A DNA stretch of 64,000 nt, from positions 49,249-113,248 of IMG/VR virus record IMGVR_UViG_3300007513_001761; one strand, 5' to 3'. Positions within the stretch are counted from its first letter, which is position 1. Every line of letters begins with the position of its first letter. A model generated the notes under the pieces. That model saw nothing but the letters and a program-made list of their open reading frames with translations, did not search any database and was not told where the DNA came from. Source of the stretch: a virus. The position numbers and the translations under genes are program-made. Positions 43,913 to 59,534 of the stretch are shown here, one piece after another.

Positions 43913-44011
43913 AACGTTGCCTTTATTAAGTTGCCTGCGAATGTTACAATCTCTACTCTGTACTCCCAAAGTACGATTGTAATCGCGGCTGTGATTAGTC
44001 TGTCTACCATT

Positions 44012-44969
44012 TTATTCTCCCTTTTGTACTCTCATATGTTTTAGTAATGACTTGTCGAACAGTCGAGGTTGACTGTCACCAACTAACAATACTTTGTGAT
44101 TCTCTATTACAACTCCATCGGTGCGGTTGATCCGATTGATGCCCAGATAGATACCTGTGCGTCGGTTAATGTCTCGGCAATGGCCATTGATGTAATCAAG
44201 TTTGAATAGTTCACCGGGTTTCATTAATCACCTCTAAATCTCTATCCAAAACGCGGCGAGGGGCGCGGTTGCCGATGAAGTGAACCTCAAGCAAAGTGTG
44301 CGCACCCTGGATGTGCGTCTGATCAAACTTACGCAAGATAAGGCCAACAGAACCAGCAGGTAAAAGGATTGAACTGCGCGTTATTCTCACTAAATCACCG
44401 GGCTGCATTGATAACCTCCAACCACTTAATAGGTTCCCATGATATCTCTTGATCTTGAATCCAATAAACTTTAACGCGCGGTCGTGTACTCGGATCAACA
44501 CGCAGCGCACCATTAGCGGTAGTCTGTAAAACAACACCGAGAGGCACGATCTTTTCATCACAAGGAAACTTTACCAGATCACCGACTTTCATTTTTTACC
44601 ACCTCGATGTCGTCAACGTTTGCAATCTGAACGCAACCGTTACCCCACGCAACGAGCCAGTGGTGTACGCCCTCAAGCAGATATAGCCCCATGTCCGCGT
44701 CTGCTGGGCGAACAAGCACACCAAGTGTACCACCATAAAGGGTCCACAGCGGATCGGTCTCAATCTCTCTAACCAGATCACCGACTTTCATTTAGAACCT
44801 CCACATCGCACAGAGCAGCCGAACACCAGCGCCCATCGGAAAGCTGCACATCGATGATTGTGTTTGACTCTTCTTCTGCGTCAATCACCATTGCAATGCC
44901 GATCACATACTGACCGCCATGGCGTGCGTTGGCGCGCCGATAGACGCGAACCAGATCACCGACTTTCAT
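44012..44969 (-). repeat. Cassette run 1: five chained GDLV mini-genes (44012-44224, 44211-44408, 44395-44592, 44579-44791, 44778-44969)
   Basis: Each begins M(K/Q)(V/P)G(D/E)L; successive genes overlap by exactly 14 nt. Confidence 0.88.
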
Positions 44970-45270
44970 TTTTTACCCCCTCGATGTGACGGCAACGACG
45001 CCGAAACTGATAGCCGGGACACGAGCAACGCCATGCGCCGCCGAACTCTTCCACCCGGTACGTCGCACCCTTGGAGCCTGTCACGGTCCACCGCTGCATC
45101 TGCGTGGCCGTCTCGCTCGGAGCGTTCCACGTCATGTACTTGGGAAGGTCTGCGCGAGTTGTGCCATCGGGCACAGGGATCCACGTCCCACCGCTGATCG
45201 CGTACAACTGCCCGTCCAGCATGCGGGACAGGATCGGGTTCCATGGAACGGTGACGGGTTTATCGGTCAT
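44956..45270 (-). CDS. SWIM zinc-finger protein using the same 14-nt junction
   Basis: V.GSKG..Y.V...WRCSCPGYQFRRRCRH; ends KNESR. Confidence 0.8.
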   Translation of the reverse strand: MTDKPVTVPWNPILSRMLDGQLYAISGGTWIPVPDGTTRADLPKYMTWNAPSETATQMQRWTVTGSKGATYRVEEFGGAWRCSCPGYQFRRRCRHIEGVKNESR

Positions 45271-45496
45271 TGATAGCCTCAAAATAATGTACGTTAAAGG
45301 TTTCTTTTCGGCTACCTGCCAAGAAGGTGGCCATCGGGTTGCCAGACAAACAGGTAGAAAGGCTCACCAGTACGCCGACCGTGCCGTGCAAGGCTGTGAA
45401 GGAGCCGCTCCCAGACCGGGATCCGCTGCTGATGTCTTTGAAGCGAACGAGATCGCCCACTTTCAGTCCGGTATCGTTTTCAAAATATGGGTTCAT
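45260..45496 (-). CDS. GDLV mini-protein
   Basis: MNPYFENDTGLKVGDLV...FEAINDR. Confidence 0.7.
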   Translation of the reverse strand: MNPYFENDTGLKVGDLVRFKDISSGSRSGSGSFTALHGTVGVLVSLSTCLSGNPMATFLAGSRKETFNVHYFEAINDR

Positions 45497-45702
45497 GCTT
45501 GGGCAACCTCGGAGATTTCGGCAGCAAAGAGCAACGCATTCACGCGCTGCATGTTTGTTTGCACTGCATCGTTGGGCGGTGTGGCCAAGTCGGCATAGAT
45601 GGCAAGCTGGAGCACCAGCACGTTGCACGCAGCAGCTTGCTGCTCCATGGGCGTGAGTGCCTTTGGGGCGTTGCTGGCGGAAAGGGTCAGGTCGCTGAAC
45701 AT
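45493..45702 (-). CDS. Hypothetical helical protein
   Basis: GAGG RBS; first gene after promoter copy 1. Confidence 0.55.
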   Translation of the reverse strand: MFSDLTLSASNAPKALTPMEQQAAACNVLVLQLAIYADLATPPNDAVQTNMQRVNALLFAAEISEVAQA

Positions 45703-45745
45703 GTAAATCCTCGGGGGGTGCGGGCAAATCTCTAACTTATGATCT

Positions 45746-45798
45746 ATTATCTCATATGCGAGCGAGAAAAGCAAGCCGATCCTGTCAAGAGAATGTCA
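45746..45798 (-). promoter_or_regulatory. Composite promoter copy 1
   Basis: TGACA-N6-TGACA-N8-TTGCTT-N17-GATAAT. Confidence 0.8.
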
Positions 45799-46020
45799 AG
45801 TCACAGCCTCCAACCACATCGGGTGAAAACACAGGATCTTCGCGCCAAACTGGACATGGTACAGATCCCTGTTTTTATGCCGTCTCTCTGATCTGACGAC
45901 TTCCACAACCAGACCGGTCCTGCTCTCTGGGAGCATCGGATCGTGGGTGCCGTCAATCACCCGAACCAGATCGCCAACGGCGAAAGGTTTATTCGTCTTC
46001 GTCGGTGTAGTAGCCATCAA
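45796..46020 (-). CDS. GDLV mini-protein
   Basis: FAVGDLV...GLVV...LEAV; stop is the TGA of the promoter box. Confidence 0.75.
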   Translation of the reverse strand: MMATTPTKTNKPFAVGDLVRVIDGTHDPMLPESRTGLVVEVVRSERRHKNRDLYHVQFGAKILCFHPMWLEAVT

Positions 46021-46198
46021 GGTTTGTTTGGGAAGAGGACAAGGGCATTCGATAAACCATCTCGTCCTGAATGAAATAGGCGTGCTGCTCCATATCGGGC
46101 AAATAAGCTAGGATATGGTCAAGTAGTTCTTTGAGTTTCTCAATCTCTTCTTCGTTGCGCATGCGCCGGTAGTCGTCAAGGTTTATTAGCTCGCCCAT
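45989..46198 (-). CDS. Hypothetical protein
   Basis: Start MGELINLDDYR with GAGG RBS. Confidence 0.6.
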   Translation of the reverse strand: MGELINLDDYRRMRNEEEIEKLKELLDHILAYLPDMEQHAYFIQDEMVYRMPLSSSQTNLDGYYTDEDE

Positions 46199-46503
46199 CA
46201 GAAAGGCACCTCTAAATAGGGGTCTTGCGTGAAGGGTGTCGCCTCGAAGATAATCGGCAACATGACGAGAGTAACCCCGGAACGCATGGCCAAGCCGACG
46301 TGACAACTTGTGGTCTGAGACTTGAAGGCGTTGCCGCCTGCCATGTACTCGGCCACAATGGTGCCGCCCATGCTTGTACGATGTCCGATCTTGAGATGGT
46401 AGGAATAAAGGTTTGTTCCGTCTGTGCTCATGGTGCAACGTCCATTGCGTGCGCGCTCTCCGCGCTTCCATGCTTCAATAACTCCTTGATTGGTGGTTCT
46501 CAT
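46198..46503 (-). CDS. Hypothetical phage protein
   Basis: AGGAG RBS; LYSY...IG, SQTTSCH. Confidence 0.7.
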   Translation of the reverse strand: MRTTNQGVIEAWKRGERARNGRCTMSTDGTNLYSYHLKIGHRTSMGGTIVAEYMAGGNAFKSQTTSCHVGLAMRSGVTLVMLPIIFEATPFTQDPYLEVPF

Positions 46504-46515
46504 GGTTGTAACTCC

Positions 46516-47799
46516 TTAATCGACCGCAATGACGCGCTCGTTGGTTTCAAAGTAGGGACGATCCGCATATGCCTTCGTCGTCATCCACATACGCTGGCAT
46601 GCGCTGGGAATGGGCTTAGGAGCACACATATCGGTGAGGATGATGTGACCGTCAAAGTTGTTTTCGTTGACGTACTTGGTGGGTGCATCAAAACACGTCC
46701 CACCGCAAAGCACTCGTTCCCATGCGCGGGTCTGTCCACGCTTCCAAGTATAAATCTTGTCCTCTGCAACGGCAGAATCAAAGGGGATCACCGTGAACTC
46801 TGCGATCTCGGCCAACTCGTTCAACTCGTTGAAAAACGCCGCCAGCATGCCGTCATCCACCGATCCGCTCTGATCAATGCTGATCGCGATCTTGGCGTGG
46901 CGACGGACGCGCTTGCCAGGATGGATCTTGGGGAAGCGACGGTTGATCCGTCGTGGCGTCGAGCGCCGATCAGCGCGTTGGGAAGTTTTAACGAAGTACC
47001 GCAGCACCTTGCGCCAGTCCACGCGGGTCTGGATGCGCTCAAGAATGTCTTTGCGCATGGATGCAGACACGGATCCCCAGCTACGAGCCTTTTCGGCTTC
47101 TTCTGCTGCCTTCTTGATCGCGTCCTTCAATCGCTCCGTGGCGATGTCTTTGGCAGTGCCTTCGGCATCACCGAACTGCTCGTGTGAATCAAAGCTATCG
47201 GCACCACCGAACGGATCGCCGTTGCCAGGCTGACCGGGCTGGCCACCTTCACCGGGCTGACCTTCGCCCGGCTGGCCTTCGCCGCCGCCGTCGCCTTCAC
47301 CTTCGCCCATCTTCTTGAGGGCTTCCAGATACCACTCGTAGGTCTGGTTGGCTGGCAGGTCGGCAAATGGACCTTCGCCCGGAATGCAACCCTTCATAGG
47401 CTCGCCGTTAATGTCCGGTCCTGGGTCGGTCTCACCTGGCAGCTTGCCGATCATTTCGGGCAAGCCGTTGATGGCCAAGTCCATCGCGATATTGTCGATG
47501 CGCTTCAAGCCGTCGATGGGCTTGCGACCGGTCACATGCTCAAAGATGATGTGATAGAACTCGTGCATGAGAACGCCCAGCTTGTGCTCGTCCTTCAAAG
47601 CGCCCATAAAAGAAGGGTTATAAAGAAGCTCAAACTGCTGCCGTTCTGGGTTCACGCGCACGCCCGCAGTCGGGATCGCAGTTGATGCGGTCTTGTCAAT
47701 CCGACGCGACAACGCAGCAAAAAACGGCTCTTGCATCAGCAAGCGCGCGGTGTGCATGTTCAAGTTGAAGGGGGTTTTAGTTGCGTTGTCGTCGTTCAT
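46516..47799 (-). CDS. HExxH metallopeptidase-VWA protein (DUF2201-like)
   Basis: MHEFYH, NIAMDLAIN, Gly/Glu linker, IDQSGS, GGT.F, LTD. Confidence 0.9.
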   Translation of the reverse strand: MNDDNATKTPFNLNMHTARLLMQEPFFAALSRRIDKTASTAIPTAGVRVNPERQQFELLYNPSFMGALKDEHKLGVLMHEFYHIIFEHVTGRKPIDGLKRIDNIAMDLAINGLPEMIGKLPGETDPGPDINGEPMKGCIPGEGPFADLPANQTYEWYLEALKKMGEGEGDGGGEGQPGEGQPGEGGQPGQPGNGDPFGGADSFDSHEQFGDAEGTAKDIATERLKDAIKKAAEEAEKARSWGSVSASMRKDILERIQTRVDWRKVLRYFVKTSQRADRRSTPRRINRRFPKIHPGKRVRRHAKIAISIDQSGSVDDGMLAAFFNELNELAEIAEFTVIPFDSAVAEDKIYTWKRGQTRAWERVLCGGTCFDAPTKYVNENNFDGHIILTDMCAPKPIPSACQRMWMTTKAYADRPYFETNERVIAVD

Positions 47800-47819
47800 T
47801 TCCTTACCTCACTATACTA

Positions 47820-47872
47820 AGTATAGCAGTTGAACGGTTTGAAGTCAATAGTTTCGTGTCAAGAGAATGTCA
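47820..47872 (-). promoter_or_regulatory. Composite promoter copy 2
   Basis: TGACA-N6-TGACA-N8-TTGACT-N17-TATACT. Confidence 0.88.
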
Positions 47873-48154
47873 AGACTCATTTTTCTCGTCATCGTCTGCC
47901 ATGATCTCAGCGACCTCGGCCACCGTTAGCTGACGATCAGCCTTCCGGCGCTTGTTGTACTCGCGCAACAGGCGGTTGTACCGCTTGGAGTTGGGCTTAC
48001 AAACATGGATATGAGGCACTCCGATCCGGCTCATGCGCCGGAACATCTCGCGCGTTGCCTGCTCCGTGTCAGGGCGCGTTAGTGGCACCTCGGTTGCAAC
48101 AGGTTTGCCATCGACGATGGCCACAGACGTTTGACTCACATACCACTTGCTCAA
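47870..48154 (-). CDS. Hypothetical protein
   Basis: AGGAG RBS, TTG start; stop lies inside promoter box. Confidence 0.65.
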   Translation of the reverse strand: MSKWYVSQTSVAIVDGKPVATEVPLTRPDTEQATREMFRRMSRIGVPHIHVCKPNSKRYNRLLREYNKRRKADRQLTVAEVAEIMADDDEKNES

Positions 48155-48183
48155 GATAAGCTCCTTTCTCTAGCTGATGATCT

Positions 48184-48236
48184 ATTATCTCATTTTTTGA
48201 CCTAAAAGTCAACCTCCACATGTCAGGAGAATGTCA
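48184..48236 (-). promoter_or_regulatory. Composite promoter copy 3
   Basis: TGACA-N6-TGACA-N8-TTGACT-N17-GATAAT. Confidence 0.85.
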
Positions 48237-48241
48237 AAGGT

Positions 48242-48454
48242 CTAAGGTTTGTTTGGGGTGTAATACTTGGCGCGCACTTCGATGTCCTTCATCCAAAAGT
48301 ATCGACCCTCTTGAAAGAGCCGGTAGATCCTGCGTGGTTGCTTGATGTTGCCGTACTCGTGTAGGTAGTCATCATTGACCTCGGTCACAATCGCCGGTTG
48401 ACCGGTCTTGTACTGGATGAGGAGCGCGCCAAGCTCAAAGGTTTGTTTGCTCAT
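48242..48454 (-). CDS. Divergent GDLV-type mini-protein (FELGALL)
   Basis: Motif pattern. Confidence 0.6.
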   Translation of the reverse strand: MSKQTFELGALLIQYKTGQPAIVTEVNDDYLHEYGNIKQPRRIYRLFQEGRYFWMKDIEVRAKYYTPNKP

Positions 48455-48678
48455 AGCTTCTCGCCTGGCACACGCATGAGGACATCGCCGTGGAAGATCA
48501 TGGACTTCCTACTTTTCAACCAGCGCACGGTGTAGCGGGCACGATAGGGTTTCTCAGTTATAACCTCGGTTATCATCCCTGGCCCGCTGGTTTCCGTGAA
48601 CGCCTGGTCAGGCGACCCTCTTGCAAGGCGGTTGGTCAGATAGACCAACTCGCCCAAAGAGAAGGTTGGATCAGACAT
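48451..48678 (-). CDS. GDLV-type mini-protein (FSLGELV)
   Basis: GMITEV...YTVRW. Confidence 0.65.
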   Translation of the reverse strand: MSDPTFSLGELVYLTNRLARGSPDQAFTETSGPGMITEVITEKPYRARYTVRWLKSRKSMIFHGDVLMRVPGEKL

Positions 48679-48679
48679 T

Positions 48680-49759
48680 TTAGCCTCCCAAGATGCTGAC
48701 CAAGTGATCGCTGACGCGCTTGCCGCCAGTAGTTTCTGCCTTGTGCAGTGCGACCACGTTGTTCACGTTGTCGGCATCACCCAGGACGGTCCACATCTTC
48801 ATAGCCACCTCGGAGGGCAGCGTGACGAAGTAGTTGGCCAGGTTCTGCACCTGCGTCTCGGTCAGATCCGCTGCAAAGGTCTCCGCAGCTTCAAACTTTT
48901 GGATCATGGCAGCGTGATCGTTGATGCCCCACTCGGAGGTCTTAGCGATATCGCCACTATCAAGGATGTCCTCAATGGTCACCTGCCAAGCGTAGTTAAC
49001 AACGAAGTCCTTGAGTGCTACCGCTGCCTCGAAACCGAGAAACGCAGTGGCCAGGTTGAAAAGCAGGTCTTGATCGCCGCCCTCTTCAAACACGCCAGCA
49101 GGTGCGGCGGTGTTGTTGAACCGTGCCCAAGACCGGCGAGAAGGATAAACCTTGTTGGGCTCAAAGTCGCCCTTGTGCTCAAGGTGCAACCGGTTGTGGT
49201 TGATGAAGTCCCAGACAACGGTGTTCACCTTGCCGTCCTTCGCCCAGTTCAGCCAGTCCTCGTCAGAGGGATCCACATCGAAGACGGTCCAGCGGTCGAG
49301 TTCTGCCGGGTCCATCTCACCGACTTGGTACTGGGCACCATGCTCGCCACCGTTCACGGCTGCGATGATGATGGTCTCCGGGTGAAGGTTCCACCCGTTG
49401 ATCTTGCGGGAATCGGTCAACTCGAAGAGACCCTGACGGACCTCCATCGTTGCGCGGTCTACCTCATCGAGAAACAGCACCACCGGCTGCTCGCATGCGG
49501 TCACGAGCCAGTCGGGCGCGTTCCACGTCGTGGCCTTGCGACCGTTGATCGAAGTGTCTGCCGTGTCGGGCAGACCGAGAAGATCGCCCTCGGTCATCTG
49601 GGACGCCCGGCGCTCCACCACAGGCAGAGTCATCTGATCAGCGATCATGTAGACCACCTCGGACTTGCCGACGCCATGGCGACCGCGAATAAGCACGGGC
49701 AGCTTGGCGCTGATGATGTGAGGGGCGACGGAAAGGAAGGTTGCGAAATCGACGGACAT
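48680..49759 (-). CDS. MoxR/dynein-related AAA+ ATPase
   Basis: GRHGVGKS Walker A; LFLDEVDRA Walker B; AAVN; DPAELDRW; PSRRSW. Confidence 0.92.
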   Translation of the reverse strand: MSVDFATFLSVAPHIISAKLPVLIRGRHGVGKSEVVYMIADQMTLPVVERRASQMTEGDLLGLPDTADTSINGRKATTWNAPDWLVTACEQPVVLFLDEVDRATMEVRQGLFELTDSRKINGWNLHPETIIIAAVNGGEHGAQYQVGEMDPAELDRWTVFDVDPSDEDWLNWAKDGKVNTVVWDFINHNRLHLEHKGDFEPNKVYPSRRSWARFNNTAAPAGVFEEGGDQDLLFNLATAFLGFEAAVALKDFVVNYAWQVTIEDILDSGDIAKTSEWGINDHAAMIQKFEAAETFAADLTETQVQNLANYFVTLPSEVAMKMWTVLGDADNVNNVVALHKAETTGGKRVSDHLVSILGG

Positions 49760-49800
49760 TTAGGCTCCAGAGATTAGTTGTTTCTCACTCTTACTTTATA

Positions 49801-49853
49801 AGTATACAGGAAAAAAGGTTTCAGGTCAAGGTTTATTTGTCAAGAGAATGTCA
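49801..49853 (-). promoter_or_regulatory. Composite promoter copy 4
   Basis: TGACA-N6-TGACA-N8-TTGACC-N17-TATACT. Confidence 0.88.
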
Positions 49854-50106
49854 AAGGAAAGCCGCCGTCTGCCCATTGCAAACCCGACTCTGTGATGGTC
49901 CACTCATCGAGCCAACGCCCATCCATGGATCGCTCACGCTCGATCAAACCTTCGAGCACAAGCATGTCCAGGGCAAGACGTGGCCACGAGGTTTCGGGCG
50001 CTTGCAGGCTATACATGCCATCGCGACTGGTCACGACACGACGCAGCATGTAGATATCCCGCCTCGAAAGCAGCTTATCGTTGAACATATAAAGTCTCTC
50101 TCTCAT
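49840..50106 (-). CDS. Putative winged-helix protein
   Basis: L..L...GLI......W.ITE.G pattern. Confidence 0.55.
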   Translation of the reverse strand: MRERLYMFNDKLLSRRDIYMLRRVVTSRDGMYSLQAPETSWPRLALDMLVLEGLIERERSMDGRWLDEWTITESGLQWADGGFPLTFS

Positions 50107-50936
50107 GCTTTCTTTGCCTTAAAGGCGGCAACGATGGTGTCTGATTCCCCGGAAAGCCAGTTAGCAGGGGGATTAATCTTGTCCGCGCTGACGGGGGAAA
50201 CCAGGGCACGGCGCTGGTAGTCGTTTTCTGAATCGTCCAGCTTCCAAGCTCCCAGGGTGCTGCCCATGCGAGGGGTAACATCGCCATGCACATCGACTCG
50301 AAGGATGTCCTGGTCCTCATTACGAAGATAGGGAAGCTCCATAGACTCACGGCGCTGGGTGTCCAGCTTATCCATCCGATGCAGAACGAGCACCGGGGCG
50401 CGCGAGTTGTAAATAGACATTTTATCCCACATTACATCGGTCACCATGCACACCACCTCGCGGCGATCCCAGCGCTTCTCGCCTGGGTTCTCGGGATCTG
50501 GGAAGTAGTCAGAATACCTTTGTGAAACGAGAGATCCCACCCCGATACCAGCGGCGCGCATGCCCTCAAGCACTACGCTGCGCATGGCGGCGGTCTTTTC
50601 GATGGCCCTCTGAATGTCTGCTTTTAGGGCAGAGCAGGTGCGGCGCGTGTGCCCCAAACCTTCTTCGGCCTCATCGCCATACTTGTACTTGCAGTAGGAG
50701 CAGCGGCGAGTGGGTCCGCGCTTTTCCAGCTTGTCGCCGGTCAGCGGGTTAACACCAGTCCGCACGGCGATCTTATCGGCCATCATTTTAGCCATGCGCT
50801 TGTCATAATCACAATCGCTAGCGTTGAAGCGATCAAAACGTTTTTGCAAACGCTTGAGTGCTTCAGGGCAAGACCTTCTGTTGTGTCCGCGCTGGTAGCA
50901 CGCGCCGCATCGAACTGTTCCGTAGTGATTACCCAT
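50103..50936 (-). CDS. Protein with two CCHC-type zinc knuckles
   Basis: CGAC...GHNRRSC and CSYC...GHTRRTC. Confidence 0.75.
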   Translation of the reverse strand: MGNHYGTVRCGACYQRGHNRRSCPEALKRLQKRFDRFNASDCDYDKRMAKMMADKIAVRTGVNPLTGDKLEKRGPTRRCSYCKYKYGDEAEEGLGHTRRTCSALKADIQRAIEKTAAMRSVVLEGMRAAGIGVGSLVSQRYSDYFPDPENPGEKRWDRREVVCMVTDVMWDKMSIYNSRAPVLVLHRMDKLDTQRRESMELPYLRNEDQDILRVDVHGDVTPRMGSTLGAWKLDDSENDYQRRALVSPVSADKINPPANWLSGESDTIVAAFKAKKA

Positions 50937-50981
50937 GTTTTCTATCCTCTCGGGGGGGTGTCTTTCTCGACTTGATGATCT

Positions 50982-51034
50982 ATTATCTCATATGCGGCGC
51001 GCAAAGTCAACGCCCAAATGCAAAGTGAATGTCA
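50982..51034 (-). promoter_or_regulatory. Composite promoter copy 5
   Basis: TGACA-N6-TTGCA-N8-TTGACT-N17-GATAAT. Confidence 0.8.
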
Positions 51035-51262
51035 AGAGACGATTTCCAAGGCCGAAGCTGCCATACGAGCAGGTTTCTTCTCGCCCGCCCAGAGCACCAG
51101 CGGATCACCCTTGTCGGGGTTCACATCTCCAAAGTGATCGAAGGCGACGAGAACGCCGACCTTGCGAGCATGCACGGACAGACGAAGTCGGGCGCGCTCG
51201 GCAGCGCGATCCGCCTTGAAGCGGACCAGGCAGCCGGGGGAAATGTCGTCTTTCGTCATCAT
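51032..51262 (-). CDS. GDLV-type mini-protein (SPGCLV), probably leaderless
   Basis: ATG 6 nt after the -10; ends LEIVS with stop in promoter box. Confidence 0.7.
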   Translation of the reverse strand: MMTKDDISPGCLVRFKADRAAERARLRLSVHARKVGVLVAFDHFGDVNPDKGDPLVLWAGEKKPARMAASALEIVS

Positions 51263-51268
51263 GTATAC

Positions 51269-51321
51269 ATTATCCCATGAAACAGGGAAGAAGTCAAGGT
51301 TGGTTTGTCAGGAGAATGCAA
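51269..51321 (-). promoter_or_regulatory. Composite promoter copy 6
   Basis: TTGCA-N6-TGACA-N8-TTGACT-N17-GATAAT. Confidence 0.8.
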
Positions 51322-51323
51322 AA

Positions 51324-51506
51324 GGAGGCGATAGAGAGTGTGCGCTGTCCTTACCGCGCACGTCGCTTAGTCCCGCTTCAACTGCCACTTCGCGGCTAGC
51401 CTGCCTAAGAAGTCCGCGTTATGTGACTTCTAACCCTTGTTTTCAGCAGATGGGTTCGTTTGGGACGGTGAACCCGTTACTTTAGTTATGGCTCTCTATC
51501 GCCTCC
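51324..51506 (-). ncRNA. Candidate 183-nt multi-stem structured RNA
   Basis: Perfect 15-bp terminal inverted repeat GGAGGCGATAGAGAG/CTCTCTATCGCCTCC followed by TTTT; several internal stems; possible pseudoknot. Confidence 0.7.
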
Positions 51507-51522
51507 GGCACTTACTCCTCCA

Positions 51523-52338
51523 TTATCGACTTTCTCCCTTCTTTTTCTTGGGTACTCGATGGGTTTTAAGATCGCGCTCTTCTGCGATGATCGTTTGGGT
51601 GCCTCCCACCGGCAGAAGTTTGTAAACCTTGTTGCCGCGCGCTGCGGCGACGGGAATCTCGGCGTTGGCTTGAATGACCACGGCCATTTCGGAAGGCATC
51701 TTGCGCCGGAGCGCCCAGGAAGCACTACCGCGCAGCGATACCATGCTTCCAACCTCGTATTTCGGGGCATCGAAGTAGCCCGCTAGTACCTTGGTTGCGT
51801 ACTTGTTGTTGGTCAAGCGGTCATAATCGCCCTTTGATGGTACACTTTCGGGGCTCAGACGCGCGCGCGACACGATCCGCTGAAAGTAGCCGTTCTTCCG
51901 GTAGTATTCCACCATCACATCAAACTTTTGACGCATCTCTGGGGTAAAGTCCTTCTCCCATGAGGCGCGCGTGGCCACTTGTCCGGCGGTCCAGTTGCTT
52001 TCAATGTTGGCCAAAACCTCTTGCTGACGAGGAGACAACGCGCTGCCTGCCATCAGTTGCTTCAGAAGGCTCTCGGTGAAGCCGAGCCCCCACTGTGCAT
52101 CGTCTCCACTCATGCGAGAACGCAACCCCTTGATGCGCGCGATCATTTCTTCATCGCGTGCAGGAGGGCTGTCATAGCGCGCTTCCAGTTGCAGCAGGCA
52201 ACGCTTCCGTCCGGCGGTCAGCGTGCGGCGGTGTTTGTAAGAACCATAGAGAGATTCCGCAAACGTCCGATCTCGCTCGCTCAAGTAATCTTTGGCGAGA
52301 AGGGCGGCGAAGCGGTCAGCGTAAGTGATGCGAGGCAT
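51523..52338 (-). CDS. Hypothetical protein with repeated F.ESL...L(S/T) helical units and C-terminal SH3-like domain
   Basis: AGGAG RBS; YEVGSMV...YK.L. Confidence 0.75.
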   Translation of the reverse strand: MPRITYADRFAALLAKDYLSERDRTFAESLYGSYKHRRTLTAGRKRCLLQLEARYDSPPARDEEMIARIKGLRSRMSGDDAQWGLGFTESLLKQLMAGSALSPRQQEVLANIESNWTAGQVATRASWEKDFTPEMRQKFDVMVEYYRKNGYFQRIVSRARLSPESVPSKGDYDRLTNNKYATKVLAGYFDAPKYEVGSMVSLRGSASWALRRKMPSEMAVVIQANAEIPVAAARGNKVYKLLPVGGTQTIIAEERDLKTHRVPKKKKGESR

Positions 52339-52363
52339 GGGTTAAACTCCTTTCTACTCTCTA

Positions 52364-52416
52364 AGTATCTCATAGAACGAGGTAGAAGTCAAGGTTTCTT
52401 TGTCAGGGAAATGTCA
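52364..52416 (-). promoter_or_regulatory. Composite promoter copy 7
   Basis: TGACA-N6-TGACA-N8-TTGACT-N17-GATACT. Confidence 0.82.
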
Positions 52417-52424
52417 ACAAAGGT

Positions 52425-52820
52425 TTATTCGTCTTCTTCCACGATCACAGGGGTTGCTGTGCCCTGCATCATGCGCTGGAGGGCTGCACGTCGCTGTGCT
52501 GCCATCGAGCCCAGCCGCACATCAGAATCACCAAAAGCCTGTTGAGACCTGGCTTTCTTTATTTCGCGCGCTTGGAGTCCAATCTGAATAAACTGCTCTG
52601 CTGCTGCGGGCGGTGCTTCGTTGAACCTATCGTCCCACCCATCATCGCGGTGCAACATTTCGCGCAAGTCATCCTCCAATGCTGTAAGTTCGTTGATGCG
52701 ATCAGCAAGCTCCGGCGACGGCAAACAACCTGCTGACGTTTTGCCCACTTCAATGATGTGTGCGCCGACTGCCGTCATCAGCAGGGAAAGTTCGCGATCT
52801 GTTAGTTCGAGGGTTTTCAT
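52425..52820 (-). CDS. Hypothetical protein
   Basis: GGAG RBS. Confidence 0.65.
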   Translation of the reverse strand: MKTLELTDRELSLLMTAVGAHIIEVGKTSAGCLPSPELADRINELTALEDDLREMLHRDDGWDDRFNEAPPAAAEQFIQIGLQAREIKKARSQQAFGDSDVRLGSMAAQRRAALQRMMQGTATPVIVEEDE

Positions 52821-52845
52821 GTGTCATATCTCCAAGTGATGCTCT

Positions 52846-52898
52846 ATTATCTCATTAAACAGGGGGAAAGTCAAGGTTTGTTTGTGAGGGAAATGTCA
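52846..52898 (-). promoter_or_regulatory. Composite promoter copy 8
   Basis: TGACA-N6-TCACA-N8-TTGACT-N17-GATAAT. Confidence 0.8.
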
Positions 52899-53180
52899 AG
52901 TAATCTTCTGGAACATGTCGAACCGGTCATCAACAAAGTTTTTGACTTCGCGCAGCCCATCAAAACGTGGAGGTTCGCCGGACCCGCGTGCTGTTTCTGC
53001 CATTTTTGCGCATTCATGCCCGTAAGCACGGAGCAACTTGATCAACTCGATCTTGCTGAAAATCGCCTTTCTTCCGTAAGAAGAAAGACCTGCGTGTTTG
53101 CGCGCAAGAATGTTTGCGATCTGAAGTGCGTCTTTCAAACCTTCTCGATCTTCCGTGTCTAAAACTAGTGTAACTTTCAT
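52896..53180 (-). CDS. Protein with ribosomal L7/L12 C-terminal-like motif
   Basis: KIELIKLLR.....GLREVKNFVD. Confidence 0.55.
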   Translation of the reverse strand: MKVTLVLDTEDREGLKDALQIANILARKHAGLSSYGRKAIFSKIELIKLLRAYGHECAKMAETARGSGEPPRFDGLREVKNFVDDRFDMFQKIT

Positions 53181-54059
53181 TTAACTGCCTCAATGCTTCG
53201 GTGGTGGAATGGCCAAACCTTTCCCTGAACGAGCACATCGTAAAAGGTGTTGTTGACCCCGTGGCGCGGTTCACTCACAATGATCCCGATGGGCTTACCA
53301 TCAATATACTTGCAACGTACTAAATCACCGACTTTCACTGATCACCTCTGCTTCGTCGGCTCGCACTTCCACGGCTCCAAGTTTGTCCGCAACTTTCAGC
53401 ACTCGCACCAAGCCCTCCATGCGCTCGCCTATGATGATGCCTCGATACTGTGTGTATTCCCACGGCTCAAAAGCTGAGCCGGTACCGGTTGAGTACCATT
53501 TCCAACGGATAAGATCACCGATTTCCATTTAGAACCTCCACTTCACCCAAGTGACAAGAATAATACTCGCCGTTCCATAAAACCCTTGCACGAGCATAGA
53601 CATGGGGATCGTAATCATCAAACGACATGAAGATCCCGATAACCTTCTTACCCTCAACTGTGAACCTCACCAGATCACCCTTTTCCATTAACCACCTCCC
53701 ATTCGCTCGCCATGCCGCGATACTTGGTGCTACCGACTAAAACCGTGATCACTTCATAAGGGGTACCAAGCACGCCTATGGTGATCACAACACCAGGCTT
53801 ATCAGTGTACGTGAAGCGCTTGTTGTTTTTAGCAGCCCAAAACATCATAGGTTTCATTTTCACCAAATCACCGACGTTCATTGATCACCTCAATATCTCG
53901 GCGGTAGTAAGCCGATGGCTGCTCGTGGGCATAGCCGTGAAAAGCAATAATCGGATCGTTGTCGCTGTCGAAACTGACCACAATGCCAGTTCCTAAGCGG
54001 GACGGCTTTTCCACATCTTCACGGGCATCAGCGAAAACTACCAGATCACCGACGTTCAT
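53177..54059 (-). repeat. Cassette run 2: five chained GDLV mini-genes (53177-53338, 53325-53528, 53515-53688, 53675-53881, 53868-54059)
   Basis: Two members (53 and 57 aa) translated by hand, below the ORF-track cutoff; 14-nt overlaps. Confidence 0.88.
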
Positions 54060-54204
54060 CTGCTTGCCCCTTGTGCTTGCCGTGCCGCACGTAACCGCGC
54101 TTGCTGTGAAATCCTGCGCCTTTGCGTCCAGTGAGACCTTTGGCGTGTGCGATCACCCAGTTGCGGGCTTTCGGCGTCTTGTTCTTGCTCTTTCTCTTAC
54201 TCAT
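54046..54204 (-). CDS. 52-aa basic protein with ArfA-like C-terminal motif, leaderless
   Basis: Manual translation MSKRKSKNKTPKARNWVIAHAKGLTGRKGAGFHSKRGYVRHGKHKGQADERR. Confidence 0.6.
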   Translation of the reverse strand: MSKRKSKNKTPKARNWVIAHAKGLTGRKGAGFHSKRGYVRHGKHKGQADERR

Positions 54205-54210
54205 ACATGT

Positions 54211-54263
54211 ATTATAGAGGATTTCGCCCTCAGAGTCAAGGGTTTAATGTCAGGAGAATGTCA
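54211..54263 (-). promoter_or_regulatory. Composite promoter copy 9
   Basis: TGACA-N6-TGACA-N8-TTGACT-N17-TATAAT. Confidence 0.9.
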
Positions 54264-54446
54264 GGTCTTTGCCATCCTCTCAAGCCGACTTTCCCGAAAA
54301 GGTTTAATCAGGTTCCGCTTCGTGAGGTATACATAGTAGCATAAATGCCCGACTATCGGCTCGGGATGTTTGCGCATCACGATACCCGTATGCAGAATGT
54401 GGCCAGTCCCCACAATACGCACCAGATCGCCTTTCTTAAAGCTCAT
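54261..54446 (-). CDS. GDLV mini-protein (MSFKKGDLV)
   Basis: GAGG RBS; stop lies in promoter box. Confidence 0.75.
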   Translation of the reverse strand: MSFKKGDLVRIVGTGHILHTGIVMRKHPEPIVGHLCYYVYLTKRNLIKPFRESRLERMAKT

Positions 54447-54454
54447 TTCAATCC

Positions 54455-54772
54455 TCAACCCTGCAACTGGGTTTGTACCACGGCAATCCGATACTCGGCG
54501 TGGCTTTGGTCCCAGAGCACATCGCACCATGAGCGAAAGATGGAATACAGATCGCCGCTCGATTTTGCCTTAAGCTCTTCGGTGGAACCGACAAAGCAAC
54601 GTTCGCCGTTGTCATCCACATATGTGGACAACGAGCCCTGTTGTGGCAGCGCGCCTATCAGATACTCATAGATGTCTTCAATAGCGCAGATTAAAGCCCC
54701 CTTACGGGTCATGTGAACGCTCGTAAAAGCCTCACCATCATAGGTGCCCACTGTGGAATATACTTTTATCAT
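54455..54772 (-). CDS. Hypothetical protein
   Basis: Start MIKVYS with ATGA overlap. Confidence 0.6.
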   Translation of the reverse strand: MIKVYSTVGTYDGEAFTSVHMTRKGALICAIEDIYEYLIGALPQQGSLSTYVDDNGERCFVGSTEELKAKSSGDLYSIFRSWCDVLWDQSHAEYRIAVVQTQLQG

Positions 54773-55113
54773 GCGCTTCTCTTCTCTTTGCTCTCGGCCA
54801 ACATCTTCTCTACCCATGCACCACCAAACTCGGCTGCGTACTTGTCGCGGAGAACCAGCAACTTCTCGCCGTCCTTCACTTCGTTGCGCAGCTTGTAGCC
54901 AGGAATCAAAAACTCGGTCCCTGGAGGCATGCCGATAAACACAGAGCACACAGCATAGGGCACAGACTTCCACCGGGTTTTTTGCTCTCCGGTCTTCTTG
55001 TCCTTCCAACTGCTGCGGAAGCGCCGAAAGCGCATGTCAATCACGCGCGCTTGAAGCAAGCCGCCGTCTGGTTTTTGAATCATTACGATGTCGTCTTTGG
55101 TCAGATAAGCCAT
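54769..55113 (-). CDS. Hypothetical beta-rich protein
   Basis: AAGGA RBS. Confidence 0.7.
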   Translation of the reverse strand: MAYLTKDDIVMIQKPDGGLLQARVIDMRFRRFRSSWKDKKTGEQKTRWKSVPYAVCSVFIGMPPGTEFLIPGYKLRNEVKDGEKLLVLRDKYAAEFGGAWVEKMLAESKEKRSA

Positions 55114-55143
55114 TGAATGTGTCCTTTCTTGAGGTTATGCCTT

Positions 55144-55196
55144 ATTATGCCACAGGGAGATTGAGAAGTCAACCCTCAAATGTCAAGAGGATGTCA
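55144..55196 (-). promoter_or_regulatory. Composite promoter copy 10
   Basis: TGACA-N6-TGACA-N8-TTGACT-N17-CATAAT. Confidence 0.85.
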
Positions 55197-55739
55197 GGAC
55201 TTCAAGGGTGTGCGTTGGAGTTTGAAAGGTGCCGTAAGATCCCCAGCAAACCTTGGCAATCCCCGCATTCATCTCTACAATGATTCCGATTCCCTTCCAG
55301 GTGCTGCGCTTGGCCAGTAGTCCATACTTCTTGCGGACCAGATCGCCAATGGCCAAAGGTTTATTCACAGTTTCAGAGTTTTTCATAGTAGTAGCTCGGA
55401 TCTTGAATGATTCCCTCAGAAAGAGAATGGATTTTGAGAATGGGATATTCGGACTCTCCCCACCCTAGTGCTTTTGATTCTGGAGTTTCAACGTGGATAA
55501 TATCCAAAATGACACAAACACCACCGGGCTTGCGATGTTGCCACACCAAATCACCCACTTTCATTTAGCACCTCTAAGTTCGCACCCAGACACGAGAAAC
55601 TATGGCCATCAAGAGCGCGCAAGTCGTAAATAAACCGCGTTTCACCAGCGGAATCTTTGACTGAATGGCGAACACGCACAATCAAAGCCAAGATCATGCC
55701 AGGGTGGGTTTTGACCACCACCAGATCACCGACTTTCAT
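55183..55739 (-). repeat. Cassette run 3: three chained GDLV mini-genes (55183-55386, 55373-55564, 55551-55739)
   Basis: 14-nt overlaps. Confidence 0.85.
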
Positions 55740-56114
55740 TTAGAAGTCCAGATTGATGGTGGTGTAGGGGTAGATATCCTGAAAGCCGTATCCGCGACTC
55801 TCAATGTCTGTACTATTTTCGCCCACTCGAACAAAGCGATAAAGCTCATCCAGTTGCATGCGTTGGCCATTAACTTCAATCTCAGTGCCCTCGTCGAGCT
55901 TTTCCATGAACGCCTCAATGGCTTCAATGACTGCATAGGAACTATACCATTTAATAGAGTTCCACCGAAACATGATCCCATCTTCGCGTTCTCTCTTTTC
56001 GTCGCAATCCTCATGGCACAAAGTGTGTGCGCCTGGACAACTTGTGAAAAGATGCATCAGCATTCCTTCGATTCGCTTGTCAACCACCAACACTACTTCT
56101 GAACGATAACCCAT
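55740..56114 (-). CDS. Hypothetical phage protein (MGYRSEV family)
   Basis: AGGAG RBS; W..IKWY, RFVRVGE...D. Confidence 0.75.
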   Translation of the reverse strand: MGYRSEVVLVVDKRIEGMLMHLFTSCPGAHTLCHEDCDEKREREDGIMFRWNSIKWYSSYAVIEAIEAFMEKLDEGTEIEVNGQRMQLDELYRFVRVGENSTDIESRGYGFQDIYPYTTINLDF

Positions 56115-56143
56115 GTGCTCTCCTTTTTTGAGCTTGTGATAAG

Positions 56144-56196
56144 AGTATAGCAGAAGACCAGAGCGCGGTCAAGGACCAAATGTCAGAGACATGTCA
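56144..56196 (-). promoter_or_regulatory. Composite promoter copy 11
   Basis: TGACA-N6-TGACA-N8-TTGACC-N17-TATACT. Confidence 0.88.
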
Positions 56197-56200
56197 AAGG

Positions 56201-56621
56201 TCATGCGCTGCTGATTAAATCCAGTTCTCCCAAATGAAACCAGACTGAGGGCACCCACTTGTGCTCGGAGTTAATGTGGTTAGTGTGAAAGTAAACACGA
56301 TAGGAGGTATCTATCAGCGGATGTTTTGACCGTTCTATTTCCACAATAATGCCCACCATGTGGTGCGCCGTTCGTCGTTTGGGTTTAACCAAGTCACCGA
56401 CTTTCACTTAGTACCTCAAATCGTTCCAACGCAAAGTGTGAGAGGGTAGTAGCATGGCCACCGTGGACCGGCAACGGCTCAAACCATCGCACTGCTAAAC
56501 GAGGCTTACCATCGACCGGAGCAACCGGCGTAAAGTGTGTAATGTAACCCACATGCCCGATGAAGTGATGATAACTCTCACCTTCGGACAACCCAACGTA
56601 TTTAATAATCGATCCAATCAT
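56201..56621 (-). repeat. Cassette run 4: 56201-56407 (GDLV) and 56394-56621 (MIGSII..., leaderless)
   Basis: 14-nt overlap; 56201-56407 is a paralog of 56685-56891. Confidence 0.8.
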
Positions 56622-56627
56622 GTTATG

Positions 56628-56680
56628 ATTATAGTCTCTGGCGATCAAAAAGTCAAGCGCCACATGTCAGAGAAATGTCA
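56628..56680 (-). promoter_or_regulatory. Composite promoter copy 12
   Basis: TGACA-N6-TGACA-N8-TTGACT-N17-TATAAT. Confidence 0.9.
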
Positions 56681-56684
56681 AACG

Positions 56685-58061
56685 TCAGGCGCTGCTGATC
56701 AAGTCCAGTTCTCCCAAATGAAACCACACGGACCTCACCCACTTGTGCTCGGAGTTGATGTGGTTCGTGTGGAAATAGACGAGATAGGATGTGTCTATCA
56801 TCGGATGTGGCGGTCGGCTGATCTCCACGATAATGCCCAGCATGTGGTGTGCTGTAAAACGTTTGGGTTTGACCAAATCACCGATTTTCACTGATCACCT
56901 CTATGTTTTCGGGACACTCAGCCGAAAGACCCTCAACATCGGTCCACATAGGAGTATCCCAGTGTACCAGCACTTGTTTGTGATCCCACCCGGTATTTAT
57001 ACACATCACAATACCGAATCGTCTTGATCCAGACAGTAGGTTAGCTTTCGTTGGGCGTACTAGATCACCCACTTTCATCGTACACCTCAAAAGGTTTATA
57101 TGTAAGTCGGTTAAACCATTTGGCTGGGTAGGCGGTAAGACCATGACCCCACAAAATGTGATATTCGCTCGGGTGTCCCTCGTGCATGACGATTTTTACC
57201 AACAAACCCAGCCAAGATTGGGTGTAGTCTAGCCCTGGCCTTGCTTGATGCGCCTTAGAAAACATCACCAGATCACCCACTTTCATTTACAACCTCCATT
57301 TGTTCAAGGGGTGTGGAGTAGATTTGGCCATCCCACAACACATAGGCGCGAGTAATGACCGGATAGCCTTCGGCGTCTCTGCCGATAGCAACGATGTCAT
57401 CCCGAATAAAAACCCCAAGAACGGGTTTCTCATGCGGACCAAACATTACTTTCACCAAATCACCGGGCTTCACTGATCACCTCTGCTTCGTCATTAGCCA
57501 GTTCCCACTCGCCACAATCAAACTGAACGATCCACATCTGACAGCCGTGTCGGTATTCTTCTTGCTTCTTCACCACTCCGAGGCGGCTGCTTTCATGGAA
57601 GCAAAAGAAACATTCACACTCTCCTTGGCTGTACCCAGGACAATCCGCAACCTTTACTAAGTCACCCACTTTCATTTACAACCTCCAACATCGCGCGCAT
57701 GTGCCAGCTTTTGCCATGGCGTGGCCAGATCACGATGGCATCATTCCACACATCACAATCGAGATCGCGGTCCAGCGAATAGCCTCTTTGTTCAAAAGCA
57801 ATCACAATGCCATATCCCATCTCATCAATGGTTTTGCGGAGAGCGTCACGGTCTAGTAGCTCGTCATTCTTTAGTCTAACGATGTCACCCACTTTCATTG
57901 ATCACCTCATAGTTCCAGCCTTGTAGCCAGCCCGCCTCTCCGATAACCTTTATCCACCCCCCATCTGTGGCACGCACCAAGTAGGCTTTATCATAGCGAG
58001 TTGTGATAGACTTGGCTCTCACTAAGTCACCCACTTTAATCCGGGGCTTCACCTGCCTCAT
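56685..58061 (-). repeat. Cassette run 5: seven chained GDLV mini-genes (56685-56891, 56878-57078, 57065-57286, 57273-57473, 57460-57675, 57662-57898, 57885-58061)
   Basis: Six 14-nt overlaps; last member (58 aa) translated by hand. Confidence 0.9.
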
Positions 58062-58088
58062 CAATGCCTCTTTCTTTAGGTTGTGTCA

Positions 58089-58141
58089 ACTATACCACAG
58101 CCCCCTTAAACGGTCAAGCCTGTTTTGTCAGAGGCTTGTCA
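58089..58141 (-). promoter_or_regulatory. Composite promoter copy 13
   Basis: TGACA-N6-TGACA-N8-TTGACC-N17-TATAGT. Confidence 0.82.
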
Positions 58142-58267
58142 AGTTCAACGCGGCGAAGCTGCTCGCGAATAGTTTTTACGTTCTGATCTGTGAGGGTGGT
58201 CTGCACAGGCTCACAAAGATACCCGCGCAGCCACCACACAAACTGTGCGGCCGAAAGGTTTGTTTGG

Positions 58268-58567
58268 TCAAGACTCAAACTTGATGACTCCCGGCGGTAG
58301 TTCGCCATCCACCATCCCACCATGCTTGGCGATGACGGTGGCCACAGTGAACACGGGAACGTATGCGTACACGGTTTCGGTGGGCTTGGCATGATCCTCC
58401 ACGTATTCCATCAGCATCTCTTCTTTTTCGGAAGGAAAGCCCACTTCCACCTCGGTGTAACGTGTGGCGTGGTCCATTCGCGGGCTACAGTATGCTCCAT
58501 CGTGCGCTTGGACGCTCATTGTAAAGCCGTCCGCACACACTACCATTTTATTGCGTTTAAGGTTCAT
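58268..58567 (-). CDS. Hypothetical phage protein (CADGFTMSVQA family)
   Basis: GGAGG RBS before MNLKRN. Confidence 0.7.
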   Translation of the reverse strand: MNLKRNKMVVCADGFTMSVQAHDGAYCSPRMDHATRYTEVEVGFPSEKEEMLMEYVEDHAKPTETVYAYVPVFTVATVIAKHGGMVDGELPPGVIKFES

Positions 58568-58571
58568 TGTT

Positions 58572-58778
58572 TTATCCTCCTCTCTTGTCAAACAATGTGT
58601 CAATGCTTCCAGTGAAGCTGTTGGGCGCCATGTCGCGGAGATTTTCTCGCGTTCTCTTGGCAGCAATGCGACGTGCGGAATGATCCCCGCATGTCAGACA
58701 TGTATCATAGCCCAGTTCTTTGCGGCGGTAGTTGTACTCCTCTCCGCATTTAATGCATTCAGCGATTTTCGCTAACAT
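58572..58778 (-). CDS. C4 zinc-finger small protein (TraR/DksA-like spacing)
   Basis: CIKCGEE...R..LG...CLTC. Confidence 0.6.
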   Translation of the reverse strand: MLAKIAECIKCGEEYNYRRKELGYDTCLTCGDHSARRIAAKRTRENLRDMAPNSFTGSIDTLFDKRGG

Positions 58779-59019
58779 AATATTCTCCTTGGTTGTTGTA
58801 AAAGTGATATTGCCTTCTCAAATTGAAAAGGTTTGTTTCGCACTCTCGGGGTACTGCCCATCGTGCGCCGGGTTTCTTGGTGGTCCAGTGAATCTCCCAA
58901 AAGGCTGTGCCGTATTCTATCTTTCTCTCCGTCAAGATACCCTGACATCCTGGCTCCGCGTGGTGTGCGCTGGTGACTACGAGGTCACCTGGACTAAACT
59001 TATAGCGATTGTAGCTCAT
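58759..59019 (-). CDS. GDLV mini-protein (FSPGDLV)
   Basis: Motif pattern. Confidence 0.7.
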   Translation of the reverse strand: MSYNRYKFSPGDLVVTSAHHAEPGCQGILTERKIEYGTAFWEIHWTTKKPGARWAVPRECETNLFNLRRQYHFYNNQGEYYVSENR

Positions 59020-59261
59020 TTATTTCCTTTGCTGATTAGCTCAAGGTCAGTAGGGAGCCAGTCAAAGACGGAGCCGTCAGTGTGACGAACCTCCACCACT
59101 TCCGTGTGTTGAAAACTTGTACCGGCTGCTTTCATTTCTCCCTCCGAAACATTTATAACGACACCCGGATTGTAGATGGCAACGGGGAATCCTCCGTTTT
59201 CGGTGTGCCAGTCTGCGATGTTTGAATGCATTTGCACCAAGTCTCCAACTTCAAACTTCAT
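59016..59261 (-). CDS. GDLV mini-protein (FEVGDLV)
   Basis: GVVI...DLELI. Confidence 0.75.
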   Translation of the reverse strand: MKFEVGDLVQMHSNIADWHTENGGFPVAIYNPGVVINVSEGEMKAAGTSFQHTEVVEVRHTDGSVFDWLPTDLELISKGNK

Positions 59262-59285
59262 TTGTGCCTCCTAAAAAGGAAAAAT

Positions 59286-59534
59286 TTAGCGCGAAGTTTC
59301 GGCGGGTTCTTCGCCAACAATGCACACCACCTCTGCGTCTGTCTCAATCCACACGCGCGCGCCGCATGACAAAGGTTTATCTGGTGAGTATATAACTCGA
59401 CATGGCCCGTCAATGCGGGCTTCATGGCAATAGTCATTTGATTTATAAGTTTTAACCGTCAATACGGGCTCTCGCTCTCCTTTCTTTTGATTGGAGCGAA
59501 TGATGTGTTGATTAACGTGGATTCTTCTCTTCAT
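59286..59534 (-). CDS. Conserved phage hypothetical protein
   Basis: IHVNQH, YSPDKPLSCGARVWIET. Confidence 0.75.
   Translation of the reverse strand: MKRRIHVNQHIIRSNQKKGEREPVLTVKTYKSNDYCHEARIDGPCRVIYSPDKPLSCGARVWIETDAEVVCIVGEEPAETSR

Follow-up and report, generated by a model that had tools for sequence, protein, structure and literature searches.

The window analysed here, the last 64 kb of a 113-kb linear virus record in IMG/VR (IMGVR_UViG_3300007513_001761; estimated completeness 61%), comes from an uncultured marine T4-type phage of a clade with genomes of about 190 kb. The minus strand of positions 44012–58064 carries 20–24 small genes (53–78 amino acids (aa)) of a single family, which form five arrays (A–E; Table 1) and are chained by start/stop overlaps of 14 nucleotides (nt). 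The subject of this report is that overlap, termed the junction together with its surrounding sequence, and the exchange of the whole genes, or cassettes, that lie between junctions.

The family's open reading frames (ORFs) start with MKVGDLV and end with EV-x-NES(R/G). Scanning the 113-kb record for [M]xxGD[LIV][VI] at the start of an ORF yields 22 instances on the minus strand and none on the plus strand, and a profile search of the record recovers 24 family genes; a preliminary description of the locus, made from the sequence alone, had already counted more than 20. Every gene between 43 and 59 kb of the window lies on the minus strand, in what is the hyperplastic early region of this T4-type clade. 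Between the arrays, 13 repeated sigma-70-like promoter modules occur on the coding strand (window 47820–58117, minus), each made up of TTGAC(T/C), a 17-nt spacer and a (G/T)ATA(A/C)T box, with direct repeats of TGACA preceding it. Each array is therefore taken to be a short operon. A terminator stem-loop was looked for beside each promoter module, with no consistent occurrence.

Junctions between neighbouring genes

All 19 positions at which the preliminary description had placed 14-nt overlaps are genuine: each lies on the minus strand, the overlap running for 14 nt from an ATG or GTG start codon to the final base of the TGA that closes the preceding ORF. That stop is supplied by the downstream gene, whose codons 4 and 5 read GGT-GA across the third base of Gly (always GGT) and the first two bases of Asp. 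The core of the overlap has the consensus RTGAAAGTSGGTGA, which reads M-K-V-G-D in the downstream frame and, in the upstream frame, shifted by one base, (N/S)-E-S-(R/G)-stop. Five nucleotides before the start codon, the Glu-Val codons of the upstream gene provide GAGGT, a ribosome-binding site for the next gene. The full junction thus spans about 33 nt: a GAGGT Shine-Dalgarno sequence, a 5-nt spacer, the ATG or GTG start and the K-V-G-D-L-V codons. It lies wholly within two reading frames and contains neither a promoter nor a stem-loop; it is a direct repeat, with no attC-like imperfect inverted repeat and no intergenic site. From this arrangement, the junction would couple translation of the genes on its two sides.

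The overlaps had been called identical, which is true of their length and not of their sequence. Exact matches to ATGAAAGTCGGTGA number only four, one of which, at 55726–55739, is a TAA-ATG abutment with no overlap; the remaining junctions deviate at 1–4 positions. The proposed ribosome-binding site in the upstream Glu-Val codons likewise holds generally and fails at the degenerate junction at 55373, which has no GAGGT and whose downstream gene has a 10-aa N-terminal extension. Even so defined, the pattern is far from chance expectation: shuffled sequence is expected to give 0 exact 14-mer matches, and reversed-pattern controls gave 0, compared with 10–21 junction pattern matches per genome.

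To place these joints in a wider sample, we surveyed about 190 related loci (187 with family hits), all of them metagenome-assembled contigs, and found 1,181 family hits across the 187. The junction pattern occurs in at least 119 IMG/VR stretches. The fetched loci contain 1,024 family genes with canonical starts; the overlap with the preceding gene measures exactly 14 nt in 688 of them and 4 nt in 160. A subset of 62 loci was fetched through a backbone gene with a vWA domain and not chosen by junction pattern; in this subset, 190 of 331 genes have the 14-nt overlap, 56 have a 4-nt overlap and 60 follow a gap.

The junction is selective in what it precedes. There are 763 non-redundant genes whose start lies in a 14-nt overlap, and 88% of them begin xxxG(D/E)hh; since the junction encodes the first seven codons of the family, about 88% of downstream partners are family members. 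Unrelated genes, such as the SWIM zinc-finger gene of array A, appear only as upstream partners, at the heads of arrays. The suggestion that the joint is plug-and-play for unrelated cargo was therefore overstated. The SWIM assignment itself stands (Pfam PF04434, 22.1 bits against a cut-off of 19.6, residues 84–104). The highly basic 52-aa peptide that leads array B had been called ArfA-like, a label that we dropped: it matches no Pfam family at E up to 1, and its PDB hits (E up to 10) include no ArfA chain. Its gene cluster recurs in the loci of relatives.

Codon use at the junction goes beyond what the overlap itself demands. The preliminary description had proposed comparing codon use there with the needs of the protein, and the comparison came out on its side: in family genes without the 14-nt overlap, which have no upstream gene to terminate, Gly4 is still GGT in 73–80% of cases, compared with 33% genome-wide. 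The codons for Leu6 and Val7 are likewise skewed in family genes. At the other end of the gene, the Glu of the last strand is encoded by GAG in 97% of genes followed by a family gene, in 68% of those followed by a gap and in 47% of cases genome-wide, a preference that would fit a Shine-Dalgarno role. Junctions also resemble their neighbours. Over 33 junction positions, the mean number of differences is 8.7 between adjacent junctions, 10.2 between non-adjacent junctions of the same genome and 10.6 between genomes (P ~3e-7), yet of 272 pairs of adjacent gene bodies, only 4 fall in a common cluster at 45% identity. Taken together, the codon skews and the similarity of adjacent junctions suggest that the DNA sequence itself is conserved or homogenised more than the amino acids require.

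A divergent family of predicted small barrels

The family alignment has a five-strand pattern, G-D-L-V, h-G-h-V, V-x-W, a short strand and h-E-V-h, separated by loops of widely varying length. An AlphaFold2 model built from a 123-sequence alignment (mean predicted local distance difference test score (pLDDT) 86) places strands at residues 6–9, 18–27, 41–47, 50–55 and 59–61. Its closest Foldseek neighbours are Tudor, chromo-barrel, KOW (eS4, uL24), SH3 and Mfd Tudor-like domains (template modelling scores 0.55–0.72, E 0.07–0.3). Foldseek finds no match in the PDB at E ≤ 0.001, and these neighbours support a fold class and not a function. A family profile searched against the PDB gives weak hits to the same group (NusG KOW, E 0.033; uL24/eL26, E 0.04–0.19). 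On these models, the proteins are SH3/KOW/Tudor-like five-strand barrels of about 60 residues. They resemble NusG KOW, uL24, Mfd and chromo-barrel Tudor domains, which are their best structural neighbours, in the predicted five-strand barrel and in a G-D-x-V first strand as in KOW motifs. Unlike those domains, each is a single free-standing domain whose loops vary greatly, their sequence similarity to them is below significance (E 0.03–0.1), and Pfam and PHROG models do not match them.

The model also bears on the NES(R/G) tail, over whose six residues, the last of the protein, confidence falls. Genes at the ends of arrays keep the final E-V-like strand without this tail, with EVLTSS, DLISSA and EAVK as examples of their endings in the window; one such gene, the last of array B, has a 4-nt overlap with a conserved backbone gene (52896–53180). 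Because array-terminal genes lack the tail and pLDDT drops over it, the tail is a passenger, a by-product of the overlap.

Database searches gave little to name the family by. Ten array genes searched against Pfam and PHROGs gave nothing above threshold except the SWIM match; a family profile run against 5.8 billion proteins found only unnamed metagenomic proteins without Pfam domains; and ESM Atlas and BFVD returned only uncharacterised viral proteins. A full-text literature search on the family's motif found no paper about the family. Searched for near-identity among GenBank phages, the whole region gave no match, nor did one family member in tblastn against the GenBank phage collection; the cultured-phage relatives of two backbone genes (below) are all distant, which leaves no cultured phage from whose genes a function could be transferred. 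The best BFVD matches form runs of neighbouring UniProt accessions, such as A0A516MB48, MB52, MB56 and MB61, which suggests that similar arrays lie in deposited, unannotated genomes of uncultured viruses.

The 1,024 family genes form 492 clusters at 50% identity. Between phages, orthologous cassettes have an interior ratio of non-synonymous to synonymous substitution rates (dN/dS) of about 0.16, and none of 68 pairs exceeds 1. These are therefore real, constrained genes under purifying selection; the same value rules out diversifying selection on orthologous cassettes. By these sequence comparisons, what had looked like hypervariability is deep divergence of paralogues and not rapid diversification. 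Their early-type promoters and variable-loop scaffold hint that the proteins may be diversified binders of host molecules. Expressed from early-type promoters of abundant ocean phages, they are candidates for host-takeover or counter-defence factors, although either role is conjecture.

Cassette exchange among relatives

Several comparisons show that cassettes differ between related genomes in units bounded by junctions. Gene maps of the window and 11 relatives have a constant order of backbone genes, whereas cassettes vary in number, in order and in the array that holds them. Among 610 pairs of cassettes from different loci with at least 70% nt identity, the homology continues into the 5′ flank in 326; where it stops, it does so within −25 to +10 of the start codon in 249 of 284 pairs, and the 3′ ends of homology cluster similarly around the next junction. 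Once repeated events are merged, 88 of 191 cassette groups have more than one type of neighbour, and of 142 distinct changes in 5′ context, 134 have their endpoint between −25 and +11 relative to the start codon. The order of cassettes among relatives is thus not fixed, and the breakpoints are concentrated in the junction instead of being placed at random.

Nearly identical genomes resolve single events. Loci L178 and L202 are 99.8% identical over 15.9 kb apart from one 176-base-pair (bp) cassette, which in their alignment is flanked by an exact 20-nt junction repeat, ATGAAAGTCGGTGATTTGGT. Loci L057 and L069, at 98.6% identity, each place a different cassette body of 140 nt between two junctions, and L057 holds a 93%-identical copy of one of the swapped bodies elsewhere in its genome. 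In L170 and L198 (99.1% identical), divergence begins right after a junction; in this pair, as in L045 and L080, a swapped cassette body is bounded by junctions; and what separates L175 from L202 is an extra cassette behind the SWIM gene, with a 15-nt flanking repeat. These single-cassette insertions, deletions and swaps are what the preliminary description had anticipated between close relatives, and the exchanged cassettes retain an intact stop, ribosome-binding site and start.

Movement over greater distances is seen for the first family gene of array B, which is 95% identical at the nt level to a cassette of L158, with 2 differences in about 170 nt of its interior. The L158 copy has unrelated flanks and lies in a different array on the opposite side of the vWA gene, and the backbone genes of the window and L158 have only 57–80% DNA identity. 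This cassette therefore moved between the lineages after they had diverged. Within the window itself, the two copies of an intragenomic duplicate (Table 1) are homologous from precisely the GAGGT of the junction as far as the −35 box of the promoter that comes next.

The explanation that best accounts for these observations, to which we assign a probability of about 80%, is that the arrays are early operons of a lineage-expanded small-barrel family whose members are exchanged whole at shared coding junctions. Each operon would be transcribed from its sigma-70-like promoter, presumably early in infection. A family with a conserved first strand (MKVGDLV) and last strand (h-E-V-h) would have expanded in tandem with its start/stop overlap fixed, so that the overlap both couples translation and, through the expansion, leaves many direct repeats of 20–33 nt. 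With 10–20 of these per genome in a single orientation, they could serve as homology patches for the recombination machinery of this phage, whose replication itself proceeds by recombination. A crossover between two junctions, within a genome or between genomes, would delete, duplicate, insert or swap whole genes and in each case rebuild an intact stop, ribosome-binding site and start. The comparisons support the crossover mechanism outlined in the preliminary description, and we infer homologous recombination as the means of exchange. Consistent with an integrase-free system, as had also been suggested, a search with positive controls found no tyrosine integrase (PF00589) in the window's record or in four complete relatives, and all four relatives encode a RecA/UvsX-type recombinase.

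Some observations weigh against this explanation. Not all insertions and deletions use junctions: one, between L176 and L182, lies at promoter repeats, and one insertion between near-identical relatives lies at an ordinary ATGA overlap. The codon bias near the start may stem from constraints on translation initiation and not from recombination. Since neighbouring genes share sequence at the junction, the breakpoints that survive would gather there even if selection acted only to keep genes intact, and clustering of breakpoints is therefore not proof of homology-guided exchange. Finally, with every comparison drawn from metagenome assemblies, some rearrangements could be assembly chimeras. Against this, the exact junction repeats are below 30 nt, shorter than typical final assembly k-mers, and one arrangement was recovered from three samples (L176, L182 and L206) at 99.8–99.9% identity; these points argue against chimeras, without excluding them for any single event.

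In the plainest alternative, the arrays arose by tandem duplication and divergence, the junction being kept for the ribosome-binding site, the start, the first strand and the upstream stop with no part in exchange, and the differences between phages reflecting differential loss, fast divergence or chimeric assemblies. Three overlapping constraints do coincide on the junction, the interiors diverged anciently (the 492 clusters), orthologues are under purifying and not diversifying selection, and the data come entirely from assemblies. Yet duplication and loss do not readily give a 95%-identical cassette in another array of a relative with a far more diverged backbone, an exact one-cassette difference with its 20-nt repeat between 99.8%-identical genomes, or bodies exchanged between a pair of junctions where the genome holds a donor-like copy at another site. 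Nor would they keep GGT where no stop is needed or homogenise neighbouring junctions, and we consider this account quite unlikely.

Two further alternatives place the junction's role in the messenger. The junction might mainly be a regulatory site in the RNA, bound by a translational repressor or cut by an endoribonuclease like RegB, which cleaves early messages at ribosome-binding sites of the GGAG type, with recombination incidental; in T4, RegB and RegA act on sites of this sort. Its GAGGT and start context are stereotyped over more than 600 junctions, and the genes lie in a region of early-type promoters; but no regulator came to light, though no search aimed at one was made, and the conserved GGT-GA and the Leu and Val codon bias of genes without an upstream partner would go unexplained, as would the junction-bounded rearrangements, which makes this account improbable. 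Ribosomal frameshifting at the junction could instead yield polyproteins of tandem barrels, the separate genes being domains. Successive genes are always offset by the same one base with no intergenic space, but each unit has its own Shine-Dalgarno sequence and start codon at standard spacing, no recognised slippery heptamer is present in the junction, and array length and order vary freely among relatives; we rejected this reading, scarcely credible in any case, on sequence grounds. The remaining alternative is a dedicated site-specific system, with a phage nuclease, a recombination mediator or an unrecognised recombinase excising and inserting cassettes at the junction, perhaps through mini-circles, in the manner of an integron without its integrase. 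Conservation of the junction beyond codon need, its homogenisation within arrays and the frequent relocation of cassettes between arrays would suit such a system, and mini-circles have a precedent in T4-type phages (PMC2839356). However, no specific enzyme was observed, the four complete relatives have no tyrosine integrase, and a special enzyme is not needed where a general RecA/UvsX-type recombinase is present and less than 50 bp of homology suffices (PMC2839356). We regard a dedicated system as unlikely.

Exchange at coding junctions by general recombination admits a stronger and more tentative form, which we think possible but would not favour: that the junction is maintained as an evolvability device, a coding connector through which hundreds of small binder genes are traded between arrays and lineages, possibly by way of junction-to-junction circles, to give each phage a combinatorial, quickly reshuffled set of host-directed early proteins. 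If true, it would be an integrase-free, translation-level counterpart of the integron.

Known systems and genomic setting

The closest described system is modular shuffling mediated by promoter-early stem-loop (PeSL) cassettes in the hyperplastic regions of T4-type phages (Arbiol et al. 2010, PMC2839356; Comeau et al. 2014, PMC4122927), and the present case is a coding-sequence variant of this PeSL or Botstein linker shuffling. Both involve a T4-type phage (with a gp23-type capsid) and a plastic early region rich in small genes of unknown function; both have a short motif repeated many times in one orientation, with insertions, deletions and replacements between close relatives bounded by it; and in both a dedicated integrase is absent and general phage recombination is assumed, for which, in T4-type phages, less than 50 bp of homology is needed according to the discussion in the PeSL paper (PMC2839356). 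The 13 promoter modules of the window extend the likeness, as the L176/L182 difference and one end of the intragenomic duplicate fall in such modules. Unlike a PeSL, which is an intergenic promoter and terminator, the main linker here is coding, a dual-frame overlap of stop, ribosome-binding site and start; what moves is a single translationally coupled gene and not a self-contained transcription unit; and downstream cargo is limited to one family, whose first strand the linker encodes.

PeSL shuffling was itself presented as an instance of Botstein's linker model (PMC2839356), and short conserved boundary sequences have been discussed for lambdoid phages and mycobacteriophages (PMC2839356, PMC3029335). 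As in the modular evolution of Botstein and Campbell, short homologous flanks place the incoming module and keep its regulation (PMC2839356, PMC3029335), although the unit of exchange here, unlike that of Botstein-type modules generally, is one gene of 50–80 codons. The arrays also resemble those of integrons in holding small, promoterless genes in the same orientation near a promoter, with number and order varying between close relatives; they differ in having no IntI-type tyrosine recombinase and no attC-like imperfect inverted repeat, the joint being a direct coding repeat.

Since about 1980, recombination at short conserved linkers has been debated against random illegitimate joins followed by selection as the source of phage mosaicism. 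For most phages, the joints of the mosaic reveal no boundary sequence (PMC3029335); here, by contrast, hundreds of joints carry an explicit linker of one standard form, and public metagenomes allow the events at it to be counted. The array also illustrates how one signal might serve both translational coupling and recombination, and it brings to light a very large unannotated small-barrel family (about 500 clusters in the sampled loci) with early-type promoters in abundant ocean phages.

Table 1. Features of the window, in window coordinates
Feature	Position	Strand	Remarks
Array A	44012–45282	minus	SWIM zinc-finger gene (44956–45282) and five family genes, all joined by 14-nt overlaps
Array A, family genes	44778–44969, 44579–44791, 44395–44592, 44211–44408, 44012–44224	minus	
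Array B	53177–54204	minus	Basic 52-aa leader peptide (54046–54204), then five family genes
Array B, family genes	53868–54059, 53675–53881, 53515–53688, 53325–53528, 53177–53338	minus	Last gene without NESR tail
Array C	55183–56114	minus	Conserved leader gene (55740–56114), then 55551–55739, 55373–55564, 55183–55386
Array D	56201–56663	minus	Divergent 89-aa member (56394–56663) and family gene 56201–56407
Array E	56685–58064	minus	Seven family genes
Array E, genes	57885–58064, 57662–57898, 57460–57675, 57273–57473, 57065–57286, 56878–57078, 56685–56891	minus	
Extra members beyond or between arrays	45796–46020, 48242–48678, 51032–51262, 54261–54530, 58759–59019, 61070–61450		N-terminal extensions or weaker motifs
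Family-like genes outside the interval of the arrays	28446–28685, 58759–59019, 61070–61450	minus	
Sigma-70-like promoter heading array E	58089–58117	minus	
Similar promoter modules	56628–56656, 56144–56172, 55144–55172, 54211–54239	minus	With upstream TGACA repeats; eight more up to 47820
Relocated cassette	53868–54059	minus	Counterpart L158:13724–13915
Intragenomic duplicate	56168–56417 and 56652–56901	minus	484-bp spacing; 81% identity
Backbone between arrays (synteny anchor)	46516–49759	minus	Zincin/vWA gene (46516–47799); MoxR-like AAA ATPase (48680–49759)
tmRNA and tRNA genes	22237–22601, 17173–17324, 60071–60763	minus	
Glycosyltransferase-like and PhoH-like genes	10850–16547	minus	PHROG matches

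The backbone among the arrays includes several conserved unknown genes besides the zincin/vWA protein and the MoxR-like AAA ATPase that sit as a conserved pair. A vWA protein 38–83% identical to that of the window is encoded at 79 loci, many of them on marine contigs of 185–200 kb. The four complete relatives measure 191–195 kb, one with terminal repeats; each carries 14–29 family genes, and all encode a T4 gp23-type capsid protein. In cultured phages, relatives of the vWA and AAA genes have 24–31% identity, both being found in the Bacillus jumbo phages PBS1 and AR9 and the ATPase additionally, as distant relatives, in N4-like and Vibrio phages.

Among the family-like genes outside the interval of the arrays, one encodes a 126-aa protein that starts with MKVGDLV and has a long C-terminal extension. 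The G+C content steps from 0.38–0.45 over the first 44 kb of the window (1–44000) to 0.49–0.55 across the array and early region (44000–60000). Elsewhere, the window encodes two glycosyltransferase-like genes and one PhoH-like gene, a phage-borne transfer-messenger RNA (tmRNA) with the tag ANNNTHFEAVAVAA, and six tRNA genes (Thr, Asn, Arg, Lys, Met and Leu).

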